Counted from the stretch's first letter, positions 14,662 to 22,147 are shown. The stretch: 22,352 nt of DNA from Candidatus Bathyarchaeia archaeon (GCA_050014495.1 JBEKDF010000042.1:1-22352), one strand, 5' to 3'. A program made the numbers and translations. The notes: generated from the letters alone by a model not told the origin.

Positions 14662-14908
14662 CGGTCTAATGTACCAAGTCGAGAAGATGGTGAATGGCTC
14701 ATGGGCGCCTGTCGAGGATCACACTATATGGGCGATGGTGGCGATTAGTATGTTTGCGGGGTCTGAGTGGAGTCAGAGCGTGTACACAACGGGTCTTGAC
14801 TCGGGGCTCTACCGGGTCTCGAAGGAGATCGAGTACGATGGCCAGAGGCAGGTGTTCTACGCCGAGTTTACTGTAGTCAGGTCTCTGATGTTAGCCAATG
14901 GGCAGGCG
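14662..14908 (+). repeat. Inverted repeat copy A (pairs with 21329-21575)
   Basis: Ungapped 247-bp manual alignment, about 80% identity; core 14795-14862 matches 67/68. Confidence 0.9.
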
Positions 14909-15037
14909 ACTAGTTTTGAACCTGAAACTTCCCCTTTAGACCCAACGGAGATCGTGGCGATCCCATCAAAGGTCAATATTGTTCCACCCTTCAACTACTA
15001 TACTAGAAACCAAACTGAGGCACTTCTCTTCAAATAA
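14662..15037 (+). pseudogene. 5'-truncated Ig-like (Big_14-type) domain fragment
   Basis: GLMYQVEKMVNGSW...GLDSGLYRVSKEIEYDGQRQVFYAEFTV is paralogous to 20966-21829 but lacks the first strands; it starts right at a (CG)5 tract. Confidence 0.7.
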
Positions 15038-17403: not shown

Positions 17404-18402
17404 CTAGAGTCTGGTCCTCACCTCCTTACCCTTAGTTATGATGGCAAGCTGAGGTGGGTAAACCGAGACTAGAACAATGGCCAAATCACCTATGATACCC
17501 ATCACGGTGAGTAACAGACCGTACCCTTCATTCATATTAACACTCGAGAAGGATATGAAACGATAAAATACACCGAATAAGCCATAGAGGAGAAAAAACC
17601 CCCTGAGATACAGTGGAGCCGAAACTTCAACCTGATCTGCTTGACGAAGCCTTAGGTAGATGTCTAATAGGAATATCGCGAAGACTAAGTTCATGCTCGT
17701 CTCGAATATGATCACCGCTTGCTCGTACCAGACCCTTGTAAAAATGGTCTGTAATGATGCGTCCATACTGGGCTGAATTAGGGAGGTCCAGAGCCATTCG
17801 AATCCTAACCACAGGTAGTTGGCCGCGAAGAGTAGGAACATCCACTTCGATAGTATGTTTTTATTTGTTATTACGCGCTTGGCGAGGTATCCGCATAGAA
17901 CAAGTAGTATGAGGATGTAGCTGTCAGCAATGATCGCGGAAATCATGTTTGGTGGCCAGCTAACCCAGAGGACGAGTCGAGTCCAACTCAATCCACCCTG
18001 AAGCCAAAACACGAGGTCAACCAGTGGGAGGGCGACTCTGCCAATCGCACCAATTATCACCGTCACAATTAGCTCTAACCCATGCCGCTTCACGACTCTG
18101 CCGGTGATGAGATAGTCAGTGATGAGGATGACGAGAGATAATCCGAAGGGGAAGACCATGACCGTTTGGAAGAAGGAACGCGCAATGTTCGGGTCTCCCA
18201 ACAGATCAAGTCGTCCCGGGATGTTTTGTGTAAGGTAGATGAATCCCTGAAACAGTGATCCGAAGCTCCAGACGAGCAGCATCGTTACGAATCCTATTTT
18301 GCCGCTTGTCTGGAGTCTGACGATGGGGATGAGGCTTGTTAATGGTAAGAAGAGCCTGGGACACCAACCGAGGTATTTATTGGCCAGGGCTCTGAAGGTC
18401 AT
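17404..18402 (-). CDS. Polytopic membrane protein with N-terminal GWCP motif (DUF1673-like), paralog 2
   Basis: Start reassigned to ATG 18402 (MTFRALANKYLGWCPR), 4 nt after the previous stop and matching the paralog's N-terminus; many hydrophobic helices. Confidence 0.75.
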   Translation of the reverse strand: MTFRALANKYLGWCPRLFLPLTSLIPIVRLQTSGKIGFVTMLLVWSFGSLFQGFIYLTQNIPGRLDLLGDPNIARSFFQTVMVFPFGLSLVILITDYLITGRVVKRHGLELIVTVIIGAIGRVALPLVDLVFWLQGGLSWTRLVLWVSWPPNMISAIIADSYILILLVLCGYLAKRVITNKNILSKWMFLLFAANYLWLGFEWLWTSLIQPSMDASLQTIFTRVWYEQAVIIFETSMNLVFAIFLLDIYLRLRQADQVEVSAPLYLRGFFLLYGLFGVFYRFISFSSVNMNEGYGLLLTVMGIIGDLAIVLVSVYPPQLAIITKGKEVRTRL

Positions 18403-18406
18403 GGTC

Positions 18407-19198
18407 TCAGCCCCGAGATTTGGTGATGAGCAATCCTTTTCCGACATCAAACCTGTAGAGATAAAAAGAAGCCAAGAGGAACATAACCGACTGCAACAGG
18501 AAGATTGCGTCAAGATGGTTGTAGGTGAATCCCATTATGTTATACGGGACCTGAGTCGGGTTCAGGAAAGTGGCTACGCTAAACTTCGTGTCCAACGCCA
18601 AGCTCTGACGCCACTCCGCATCGAATAGGTTCCAGACATACTCAACCAGCGGCACCACGAAGTAAAGGGAGAGCAGCAGAAACGTCCATTTGACCAGTAT
18701 TGATCTATCCTTGAGTAGCCGGAATGAGACGTATAGGAAGAGCGTCGCCGAGGTCAATGTTAGAGCGGCTGAGCTGAGTGTACTAGTCAGGGTGAACATC
18801 TGATTGTTCAGGCCGTAAACGCCGAACAGCAGTGAAATTATGCTTTGACTCCCCCATAGGCTTAGGATTAGAGATGCCTCGAGTTTATGCCGCCTCAAGA
18901 GGCCGCCGTTGATGAAGAAATCAAATATTAAGGTGATGATGGTGAGTCCTGCGGCGATGTTTAGAAGATTTGAAATGATGATGAAGTAGCCGTAGGAGTA
19001 TAGAAGATCAGGTGTCAAGTATTGTGGGATCAGTAGTATCGCCGCGAGTATTGCGAGTAGTCCAGTCGTTCCCATCAAGGTAGAGAAGACCATCTTACCG
19101 CTGATTGGTAAGTCGGCAAACGGGGCACTTTGAATGGGGACCTCCTCAAAGTGCGGGCACCAACCCCTGTACTTGTCTAGGAGACCGCGCAGCGTCAT
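18407..19198 (-). CDS. Polytopic membrane protein with N-terminal GWCP motif (DUF1673-like), paralog 1
   Basis: MTLRGLLDKYRGWCPH; ATGA overlap with the upstream regulator; shares SGK, RH-x-LE and IL-x-KW-x-FLL blocks with the next gene. Confidence 0.78.
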   Translation of the reverse strand: MTLRGLLDKYRGWCPHFEEVPIQSAPFADLPISGKMVFSTLMGTTGLLAILAAILLIPQYLTPDLLYSYGYFIIISNLLNIAAGLTIITLIFDFFINGGLLRRHKLEASLILSLWGSQSIISLLFGVYGLNNQMFTLTSTLSSAALTLTSATLFLYVSFRLLKDRSILVKWTFLLLSLYFVVPLVEYVWNLFDAEWRQSLALDTKFSVATFLNPTQVPYNIMGFTYNHLDAIFLLQSVMFLLASFYLYRFDVGKGLLITKSRG

Positions 19199-19662
19199 TG
19201 TCTCAGCTCCGGTAACAGCTTCGAGAAGATGACGTGTGCCAGCTTCGATGGGGGTAGCTTCCTCTGCTCCGCCTCCAGCTCGACTCCCCTCTCCTTCGCC
19301 TCGTCGAGCAGCCTCTCCCCACAGCGCCTAACATATCCACATACATCACAGTTGGGCTCCTCGAAGTGCCAAGTCTGGACTCCATGCTTCCTCGAGAAGG
19401 TGACGATCACCTTGCTGGAGTCTAGAGGCATGCTACCTAGGAGAATACCATTCTTAGGGTCAATTCGAATGATCTCGATCGAGCTCGCCTCAGCTGTATG
19501 CGTGAGGGCGTTCTCAACCTTACCCAGCGACACTTTTAATGCGTCGTAGACCGCCTGCCGCGTGAAGCCGAACCTCTCACCAATCTCCGCCCTCGACTCG
19601 CCTCGCCTGTTCATGTCCCATATGTCTAGTTGGCGGGCGGTCAAGTAGGCTGAGGATAACAT
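19195..19662 (-). CDS. HTH transcription regulator (sigma70 region 4/LuxR-like) with C-terminal C-x2-C-x5-C domain
   Basis: LTARQLDIW...GESRAEIGERFGFTRQAVYDAL HTH; GVQTWHFEEPNCDVCGYVRRC; EAKERGV...PPSKLA. Confidence 0.8.
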   Translation of the reverse strand: MLSSAYLTARQLDIWDMNRRGESRAEIGERFGFTRQAVYDALKVSLGKVENALTHTAEASSIEIIRIDPKNGILLGSMPLDSSKVIVTFSRKHGVQTWHFEEPNCDVCGYVRRCGERLLDEAKERGVELEAEQRKLPPSKLAHVIFSKLLPELRQ

Positions 19663-19683
19663 ATATATCTAAATCAAGATAAC

Positions 19684-19707
19684 ATGTAAAGTATAAGAGC
19701 TTTACGT
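19684..19707 (-). promoter_or_regulatory. Palindromic operator overlapping the TATA box of the HTH-GWCP operon
   Basis: ATGTAAAG-TATAAGAG-CTTTACGT (GTAAAG-N8-CTTTAC). The minus strand reads AAAG-CTC-TTATA about 30-35 nt upstream of ATG 19662. Confidence 0.6.
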
Positions 19708-19728: not shown

Positions 19729-20121
19729 CTATGGCACTTTGATGCGATAAATGATCATCAGAATCAGGAACCCAACTGTGGATAATATTATCCCAAGAAC
19801 GACCTGGGTGTTCGCCGACTGTCTATCGTATAACACACGAGAACCCCTATAAACCAGGAAAATACCACCAAAAGTCATCCCATACAATAAAAACGTCAGA
19901 ACAAACTCCGTTGAGGTCTGCTCAGATGCGTAAGGAGAAATGGAGGTCGGACCTCCGGACTGATCCGCGACCAACCCGGGTGGATGGTTGATGACCTCGT
20001 ATGTCCCACCGCATACAATGAAGAGCACGAAGATGACCAGGATAAATGGACCATATTCACGGAGTGATTCAAACGAGATCGACTTACGTTTCTCGTGGGA
20101 CTTACCCTTCCTCTTAGACAT
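19729..20121 (-). CDS. OST3/OST6 (OSTC/DC2)-like oligosaccharyltransferase accessory subunit
   Basis: 130 aa, basic N-terminus, 3 TM; GGTYEVINHPP...EQTSTEFVL...GG mirrors the GG-x-Y-D-x-I-xx-PP...Q-xxx-E pattern of DC2/OST3-6 (recalled from memory, not searched). Confidence 0.65.
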   Translation of the reverse strand: MSKRKGKSHEKRKSISFESLREYGPFILVIFVLFIVCGGTYEVINHPPGLVADQSGGPTSISPYASEQTSTEFVLTFLLYGMTFGGIFLVYRGSRVLYDRQSANTQVVLGIILSTVGFLILMIIYRIKVP

Positions 20122-20965: not shown

Positions 20966-21829
20966 TTAATCACCCATGTACCCGACTGCCTTGAACAGTA
21001 ATACGTCACTACGCTTTCCAATGATGCTAGCATCGTTTGTGCCGACTCTGTAAGTCCCGACAAAAGTCAACGAAACCTCAGCACTGCTCGGGCCAGTCTC
21101 AACGATCTTGTCGAAGAACGTGTAATTCACGTGCTTAACCGTACTCGATGCATCGATCTCATCCTGAGTCAAAACCTGTATAACCACACCTTTGATACCA
21201 CGAGGGACATCAACCCCTGCGAGGTTCGGCGTCGATAACAGGATCAGACCACCCTCCGGGAGGCTGACTCCCCTGCTTACTCCCTGAAGCAACTGATCCA
21301 CGTGGTCGCTGAGTGCCAACTCAACCAACGCCTGCCTGTCGGCTAACCCTAAAGGCCTACTCACCGTGAACTCCGCGTAGAACACCTGCCTCTGGCCATC
21401 GTACTCGATCTCCTTCGAGACTCGGTAGAGCCCCGAGTCAAGCCCCGTAACATTGACACTCTGATTCCAGGCAGACCCCGCAGACGCACTAATCAACAGC
21501 ATTGCCCACCAGGTGTGATCCTCCACAGGAGTCCACGTCTCATTAACCATCTTCTCGAGATGATACATGAGACCGTACTCGATGCTCCACGGACCCGGGT
21601 TGAATATCCTGAGAGCTATCGCGCCCTCATCCGTCACGTTAGATGGCTGAACGCTCAGAGACGGTTTAGGCTCGTACAGGTTGTTACTCGAGTCAATCAC
21701 AGTGTAGTCAGACTTGATGCCGACGATTGGGGCTCCGCTATTATATCCGAGCCCGACGCCGTGTCCCAGTCCCCTCGGGACGCTGAGGGTAACGTTGAGT
21801 ACAGTCGGCTCGTTGACAGTCACGAACAC
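20966..21829 (-). pseudogene. Ig-like (Big_14-type) domain protein, probably 5'-truncated
   Basis: SIEYGLMYHLEK...W...LDSGLYRVSKEI...FYAEFTV. No signal peptide; the frame closes about 20 codons upstream of GTG, inside the PadR fragment. Confidence 0.6.
21329..21575 (-). repeat. Inverted repeat copy B (pairs with 14662-14908)
   Basis: Reverse complement aligns without gaps to copy A; core 21375-21442. Confidence 0.9.
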
Positions 21830-21832
21830 AGG

Positions 21833-22147
21833 GATGAGGGCTTGGATAGACGTAATTATACCATCACGCCGGAAGGTGAGGAGGCTCTACGTAAGGGGAT
21901 GGATCGCTGGAGCCAAGTCATGGAATATGTTGAACTCTTTGGCGAGAGGCACAGGGCTGATGTAATTGTTAAACTGGGGGAGTCAATGAGAGAAGCCTCA
22001 TTCAATGTTTCAGACGCTCTTCCCACTTTAGAGTCGATGGAGATTGAGTTGCCTGAACAGTTAATGTTCAAATTCCTTTACGCACCGGAAGGCGATGAAA
22101 TGGAGATCGAGATCGAGGTAGAGTGGCCAAATAAGCAGAAGACATGA
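21833..22147 (+). pseudogene. 5'-truncated PadR-family regulator fused to an amphi-Trp-like domain
   Basis: DRRNYTITPEGEEALRKGMDRW is the PadR wing plus C-terminal helix; EIELPEQLMFKFLY...EMEIEIEVEW resembles an amphi-Trp terminus. The upstream part of track ORF 21515-22147 is merely antisense to the Ig gene. Confidence 0.65.

Follow-up and report, generated by a model that had tools for sequence, protein, structure and literature searches.

A candidate archaeal repressor/membrane anti-repressor system pairing a three-cysteine helix-turn-helix regulator with membrane proteins that carry a portable W-C-P tag

To our knowledge, archaea lack sigma factors, and how envelope signals are passed to archaeal genes independently of kinases is largely open. 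Extracytoplasmic function (ECF) sigma factors have a sigma-2 region ahead of sigma-4 and activate target promoters on release, and membrane partners of the zinc anti-sigma (ZAS) type carry an H-x3-C-x2-C motif. The present analysis concerns a three-gene operon in a 22,352-nucleotide stretch of DNA from a Candidatus Bathyarchaeia archaeon (GCA_050014495.1 JBEKDF010000042.1:1-22352; hereafter the window), which encodes a helix-turn-helix (HTH) protein with three cysteines (the regulator) and two membrane proteins (m1 and m2) with a GWCP peptide near the N terminus (the tag). Several described systems resemble it in part. In Bacillus subtilis, SdpI sequesters the autorepressor SdpR and so derepresses the operon (PMC2910880). 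In HAAS-PadR systems, a portable N-terminal module sits on diverse membrane or sensory bodies, including Toastrack/DUF4097, and is always coupled to a standalone HTH gene (bioRxiv 10.1101/2020.09.24.301986). The GWCP N terminus is known from DUF1673 (PF07895) and arCOG06827, “MGWCP motif”, a label that comes without function, regulator or operator in the available text (PMC4158269, PMC4390880). The iron staple of AddB, Cas4, Dna2 and Exo5 consists of one distant and three clustered cysteines, with Fe-S or Zn bound (PMC3466216, PMC3378879).

Across the genomes surveyed, the regulator gene is coupled to genes for tagged membrane proteins, a palindrome occupies a characteristic position in its promoter, and the cysteine triad of the regulator co-varies with the tag. 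This combination is judged to be real, a system of repressor and membrane anti-repressor whose parts are undescribed: a promoter palindrome, a probable three-Cys HTH autorepressor and membrane proteins with a W-C-P tag, whose capture of the regulator would complete a metal site and switch the genes on. Taken as a whole, this proposal has about even prospects of being right. As a reading of the sequence alone had already held, the three genes form a tightly coupled operon, with the regulator stop codon overlapping the m1 start codon (ATGA) and 4 nt (18403-18406) between m1 and m2 (Table 1). Its description of the proteins also stands: C105, C108 and C114, spaced C-x2-C-x5-C, are by count the only cysteines of the regulator, and m1 and m2 are divergent paralogs (26% identical over an alignment of 266 columns, E = 3e-13) that share KY-x-GWCP, reading KYRGWCP in m1 (residues 9-15) and KYLGWCP in m2, with GWCP occupying residues 12-15 of each. 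All three proteins stay below every Pfam and NCBIfam cut-off, and PHROGs gave weak matches only, nothing meaningful. The same genome contains three copies of the regulator (76-79% identity) with a GWCP gene immediately after each, and its four long open reading frames (ORFs) with an N-terminal GWCP all lie in operons headed by a regulator copy; one of these partners is a single-pass protein with a large soluble domain.

Homologs of the regulator were sought by profile in 301 genomes of the class (E ≤ 0.001) and 301 of the phylum (E ≤ 1e-8) and were found in 97 of the former, where the weakest matches covered the HTH only, and 16 of the latter; representative proteins at E ≤ 0.001 numbered 219. 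Adjacency was scored on 186 distinct full-length regulators from 226 loci (the 30 best and 60 across the E-value range of the class search, 23 from the phylum search, 25 from another search and the best 80 of 121 from a further one), duplicates and partial profile matches having been dropped. Two of the 186 had no room downstream, and the tag was sought within the 26 N-terminal residues encoded by the following gene. A tag with Cys is present in the next gene of 139/163 three-Cys regulators with downstream room (67/87 in Thermoproteota and 72/76 of the Methanomicrobiales type), against 53/2392 ordinary ORFs of the window's genome, so that regulators usually adjoin tagged genes, as the sequence-only reading had supposed. 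The reverse also holds, with 48 of 53 tag-profile matches in 40 genomes lying within 4 kb of a regulator; at E ≤ 1e-3, matches occur in 22/25 genomes with a regulator and in 0/15 without, although the tag profile was partly built from the same loci. Regulators and tagged genes are thus coupled. In Methanomicrobiales, a single regulator heads arrays of several tagged genes. No regulator-partner fusion was found among 7990 longer candidates, which is weak evidence; P0179, considered as a fusion protein, looks like a frameshift join. Viral contigs gave 23 pattern matches, none confirmed.

The family is widespread, with members in Bathyarchaeia and Methanomicrobiales and homologs in Asgard archaea. 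Close homologs with names are Bathyarchaeota, two of 10 distant homolog clusters that were looked up are named Asgard archaea, and six of eight metagenome regulators fall within clusters named Methanoregula. A second, distant group of homologs (P0241, P0245, P0249, P0250 and P0259) has no Cys triad and may represent a separate loss of it.

The bodies that follow the tag vary widely, as had been anticipated from m1 and m2. Among 59 Thermoproteota partners scanned, matches included NosD/beta-helix, Toastrack/DUF4097 (a single partner), bacterial PH and zinc ribbon domains, and 44 had no match; among 12 from Methanomicrobiales, DUF1673 (four), SdpI/DUF1648 (two) and DUF6159 (two) were found. Many partners are single-pass proteins with outer domains. 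Judged by sequence, the tag is a portable peptide of about 10 residues, W-C-P in core, fused to unrelated membrane bodies. In a crude hydropathy scan, Lys and Arg are more numerous ahead of the first membrane helix than behind it in 115/135 partners, and the N-terminal tag therefore likely faces the cytoplasm, the side presumed earlier. This arrangement works like HAAS-PadR, with a portable N-terminal module on variable bodies and a standalone HTH gene, and is not homologous to it: HAAS is a three-helix domain paired with a PadR winged HTH, whereas here a peptide is paired with a Tfx-like HTH joined to a Cys domain, and no PadR, DUF1700, DUF1129 or DUF1048 match was found among the window proteins and the 59 partners. 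The sequence-only reading had also named a GWCP N terminus as the hallmark of DUF1673. m1 and m2 share this N terminus with the family, and true DUF1673 members do occur in such Methanomicrobiales operons (the four just mentioned exceed the cut-off), but m1 and m2 have no match at E ≤ 1 (Pfam cut-off 30.4 bits), no protein of the window's genome or of 20 relatives exceeds the cut-off, and none of the 59 Thermoproteota partners matches at E ≤ 1e-3. DUF1673 is apparently just one of the many kinds of body to which the tag is attached. Outside the coupled genes, an m2 homolog (G000:C16:1920-2810, plus strand; 40% identical) has neither a GWCP tag nor an adjoining regulator and lies 3 kb from another module.

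The AlphaFold model of the regulator is confident (pLDDT 92) and places the HTH at about residues 9-59, the remainder being alpha/beta. The nearest solved HTH is that of Tfx (PDB 8HNO and 1NR3; E = 4e-7, residues 5-65), and sigma4/LuxR-type domains align at Z of about 5, a common arrangement. The earlier label of sigma4-like HTH thus holds as a resemblance to sigma4 and Tfx but not as membership, the scores being below family cut-offs. The regulator differs from Tfx itself in its C-terminal domain, in reaching 15.8 bits against the TIGR00721 (Tfx) cut-off of 60.25 and in having no TFX_C match in the Pfam scan, which likewise gave no HTH_5/ArsR, PadR or PDDEXK/Cas4 match and no Sigma70_r2 match at E ≤ 1. 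A known fold for the C-terminal domain was sought and not found by Foldseek at E ≤ 0.001; the best VIA match (Z 4.3, 77 aligned residues, root mean square deviation 4.0) is compatible both with a new fold and with a known one. All 89 Cys-type regulators of alignment A4 have the Cys triad, for which they were selected, and it is nearly invariant among 44 unselected diverse homologs. In place of the triad, two regulators (L058 and P0129) have CxxC alone, with a His upstream of it; the partner of L058 retains GYCP, and the pair would fit a site of two Cys, one His and a partner Cys.

The palindrome has the family form GT[AC]AA-N10-TT[TG]AC, which was sought within 90 bases upstream of regulators and was defined on the same set. 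It occurs upstream of 131/183 regulators (0.08 in base-shuffled controls) and, with one mismatch allowed, in 143 of the 183 promoters against 2.26 expected. The window contains one match (0.01 expected), which falls inside the interval 17404..19707 singled out by the sequence-only reading but went unmentioned there. Across the 3.1-Mb genome the clade form occurs at three sites, one ahead of every regulator copy (control, 0). The spacer of the window palindrome is TATA-like on the coding strand, and in near-clade promoters the palindrome encloses a TATA-like spacer in 22/27 cases; in Methanomicrobiales it lies just behind a TATA-like box in 63/74. Tagged genes that are transcribed separately (divergent or upstream, at five loci) have their own exact copy of the palindrome in 6/6 cases, which ties operator and tag together independently of operon order. 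In addition, a Methanomicrobiales paralog combines its own recognition helix with an operator variant and a GLC tag (6/6, a single clade).

The regulator is most likely an autorepressor rather than a sigma-like activator, because the palindrome lies over or just behind the TATA-like element, is rare in the genome and precedes tagged genes. Archaeal repressors bind downstream of BRE/TATA (BRE, transcription factor B recognition element) and activators upstream, as far as the available part of a review describes (PMC4158304). There is thus good reason to expect that a regulator dimer binds the palindrome and blocks TBP/TFB or RNA polymerase. The sequence-only reading had favored an ECF-like scheme instead, in which an activator tethered at the membrane is freed by a signal or by proteolysis. 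The two systems do have in common the coupling of a regulator gene to that of a membrane partner whose N terminus is cytoplasmic and metal-related, a sigma4-like HTH (if of a common arrangement) and many single-pass partners whose outer domains recall anti-sigma factors, and tethering itself is supported by the complex model described below. Nevertheless, the window regulator has no sigma-2 region, the palindrome is in a repressor-type position, the reviewed activators bind upstream of BRE/TATA (PMC4158304), and no further palindrome site, and so no outside regulon, was found in the 3.1-Mb genome. The arrangement also differs from ZAS in that the Cys cluster is on the regulator and the tags carry a single Cys, with no H-x3-C-x2-C. 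ECF-like release of an activator is not supported by these results and is highly improbable.

Contact between regulator and tag was modelled with the regulator, residues 1-35 of m1 and a [4Fe-4S] cluster, in three runs with three controls. The complex scored 0.79 in the three runs, against 0.00 for the best control; the score mark is reached by 116/157 solved complexes and 2/215 mismatched pairs, counts that hold only roughly here because own alignments and a ligand were used. The runs had at least 80% of contacts in common, with partner pLDDT of at least 51. The modelled interface comprises tag residues 10-18: Trp13 packs against I86, W98, S139, A142, H143 and F146, and Cys14 touches W98, H99, P138, S139, A142 and C114. 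On this model, the cytoplasmic tag would very probably dock into the regulator C-terminal domain, with Trp13 in a pocket formed by I86, W98, P138, A142 and F146. Co-location alone cannot prove binding, and m1 and m2 resemble each other outside the tag as well, so an autoregulated operon whose membrane genes have in common merely an ancestral N terminus or a translational-coupling sequence would need no contact between the proteins. This is very unlikely, given that the tag occurs on unrelated bodies, is kept in separately transcribed genes, co-varies with the regulator and passes the complex test.

The second part of the proposal is that tag Cys14 would complete, as fourth ligand, a site in which C105, C108 and C114 hold a [4Fe-4S] cluster or Zn, and this is probable, if less firmly so than docking. 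For 19 regulators that have none of the three cysteines, the partners have GW[VLIF]P in 14/19 cases and a Cys tag in 0/19. These regulators keep W98, P138, A142 and F146 in 19/19, and their partners retain G-W/Y-x-P. The joint loss suggests that the tag is the source of the fourth ligand, and the Cys-less clade may be a metal-free version that has kept the Trp pocket. The idea, already present in the sequence-only reading, gains from the joint loss and from the modelled contact of Cys14 with C114; the metal itself is putative. The shared site would be a two-chain version of the 1+3 arrangement of the iron staple. The spacing C-x2-C-x5-C is also that of the genome's own Exo5-like PD-(D/E)XK nuclease (L227; G000:C20:44679-45470, plus strand; found as a solo gene), which has C54 plus C251-x2-C254-x5-C260. 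In the staple, however, four cysteines of one chain surround a nuclease domain, whereas here the fourth would come from another protein, and no sequence or fold homology with the regulator was found, so that the likeness is one of motif. The staple nuclease has an aromatic residue two positions beyond its second Cys; the counterpart in the regulator was considered and not used as evidence, because it is kept in the near clade only. Fe-S is weakly preferred over Zn.

In the last step, a signal read by the variable body would expose the tag, pull the repressor off DNA and induce more partner, which is somewhat favored over its contrary. By analogy with SdpI, envelope stress, a peptide or a toxin are candidate signals. 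Membrane capture would then switch the operon on, following SdpR/SdpI logic and reversing the ECF analogy. As in SdpR/SdpI, an autorepressor gene heads a membrane-partner gene and the proposed sequestration derepresses the operon (PMC2910880), and the SdpI/DUF1648 bodies in 2/12 Methanomicrobiales partners carry the tag. The window regulator is not of ArsR type, m1 and m2 have no SdpI domain (PF13630), and the predicted contact involves a metal site and a portable tag at the N terminus of many unrelated bodies. The most extended form of the proposal, a [4Fe-4S] cluster split between a repressor (three Cys) and a portable tag (one Cys) on dozens of unrelated membrane sensors, which would act as a switch between proteins, perhaps labile to oxygen, with tag/operator codes particular to each paralog and one derived clade that has dispensed with the metal, is tentative and falls short of even prospects.

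The tag could also act in the opposite sense, as a co-repressor, if the regulator folds or dimerizes only with a tag-completed metal site, so that partner abundance, or a tag set free by proteolysis, shuts the operon off and keeps membrane-protein levels steady by negative feedback. Such a scheme fits all genomic data. A three-ligand site may be unstable alone, and staple Cys mutants of Cas4 are insoluble according to the available text (PMC3466216). Furthermore, arrays of several tagged genes per regulator would over-titrate the repressor if capture were ungated. The characterized analogue, SdpI/SdpR, nevertheless works by sequestration and derepression (PMC2910880), and its SdpI bodies occur with the tag. 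A membrane-anchored tag would be ill placed on DNA unless cleaved, and no protease is evident among the operon genes read, although no search was aimed at proteases. The co-repressor scheme is considered unlikely.

Several points weigh against the proposal that capture by the tag completes a metal site and derepresses the operon. The tag and operator patterns were defined after viewing the same loci, the next gene is untagged for 17/163 three-Cys regulators (for a few, a tagged gene lies close by), and in the window's clade the conservation of the palindrome may partly be that of BRE/TATA itself. The complex score was calibrated without a ligand or user alignment, sequences for the partner alignment were selected by their Cys tag, and the metal geometry is indirect because the complex tool reports no ligand contacts. 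The direction of regulation is drawn from site position, the complex model and analogy. The 19 Cys-less regulators form one clade (SH-aLRT 99 in a quick tree of 132/186 rows, Methanomicrobiales rows thinned), so the joint loss counts as one event, not 19. Seven three-Cys regulators, the IxPP clade, have next-gene partners without Cys or Trp (7/163); these regulators have also lost pocket residue P138 and have a His and a four-residue insertion. The clade (L112-L115, L126, L133 and L134) has an altered HTH and a different upstream repeat, its partners are bPH_2 membrane proteins starting IxPP (5/5 scanned), and its regulator homologs are named Thorarchaeota.

The remaining points concern a histidine within the regulator. 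His99 is invariant in 120/120 of the nearest homologs among the matches listed and lies within the modelled tag interface, and all 77 Methanomicrobiales-type regulators have a His at position -4 (H-x3-C-x2-C-x5-C), in a motif with a weak match, below cut-off, to the complex I Fe-S family PF10588 (E = 8e-4). They would fit a self-contained site of three Cys plus His or Glu, as in complex I N5, with the tag binding through Trp and Pro only and its Cys being structural or redox active; the Cys-less clade, in which the pair persists without Cys, and the IxPP clade point the same way. An internal ligand of this kind had been named beforehand as one of the findings that would refute a shared site. 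His99 as a universal fourth ligand was set aside, since position 99 is Tyr in 47/83 Thermoproteota three-Cys regulators, and in 36/88 Thermoproteota regulators the eight residues preceding the triad include neither His nor Cys, most of these regulators still having Cys-tag partners. On the alignments there is no family-wide fourth ligand inside the regulator. In addition, clades differ in where the His sits, loss of the tag Cys coincides exactly with loss of the triad, and in the model the tag Cys lies against C114. A self-contained site is accordingly rated as quite unlikely.

Table 1. Features of the window discussed in the text (all three genes on the minus strand)
Feature	Coordinates	Strand	Description
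Regulator	19195..19662	-	155 aa; Tfx/sigma4-like HTH, four-stranded sheet, Cys triad, C-terminal helices (predicted tag pocket)
Cys triad C105-x2-C108-x5-C114	19321..19350	-	Predicted three-ligand half of metal site
m1	18407..19198	-	Polytopic membrane partner, 263 aa; translationally coupled (ATGA)
m1 tag, residues 10-18	19145..19171 (GWCP core 19154-19165)	-	Predicted docking peptide
m2	17404..18402	-	Polytopic membrane partner, 332 aa; m1 paralog; own GWCP tag at 18358-18369
Palindrome GTAAAG-N8-CTTTAC	19686..19705		Operator-like; 43 to 24 bases 5' of regulator ATG

Relative to its closest relative, P0122, and also to P0123, m1 lacks about 52 residues in frame near position 18568. Contigs in three of four sequencing runs of other studies bridge the deletion junction without a gap, so this is a real natural allele. 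Directly upstream of the palindrome, positions 19729-20121 (minus strand) encode a 130-aa membrane protein that scores above the OST3_OST6 cut-off of Pfam (E = 9e-10) and weakly matches DAD and Ost5; it is predicted to be a small eukaryote-like oligosaccharyltransferase subunit in Bathyarchaeia. By eye, the ORFs at 14669-15037 and 20966-21829 (plus strand) have a near-identical stretch of about 60 residues in common, a local duplication. The C-terminal part of the ORF at 21515-22147 (plus strand) resembles, again by eye, what we take to be the wing and tail of a PadR-type regulator, and its start may have been displaced by the ORF at 20966.

A literature search found no description of the system; the supplements of PMC4158269 and the arCOG tables, which may annotate the regulator, and subscription journals were outside its scope. 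The motif was found only as an arCOG label, and nothing was found that joins Bathyarchaeia with anti-sigma factors.

The proposed mechanism is experimentally tractable, in that a soluble protein of 155 aa, a peptide of 20 residues and an oligonucleotide of 20 bp would cover every step. Together with its repressor and operator, a tag of 10 residues could also find use in archaeal synthetic biology. For the family, the orphan MGWCP motif noted in 2014 gains a partner, a predicted binding pocket, and a candidate operator and regulon, across at least two phyla. If true, a switch from membrane to gene built on a metal site that a repressor and a membrane protein complete together would be unusual and undescribed.

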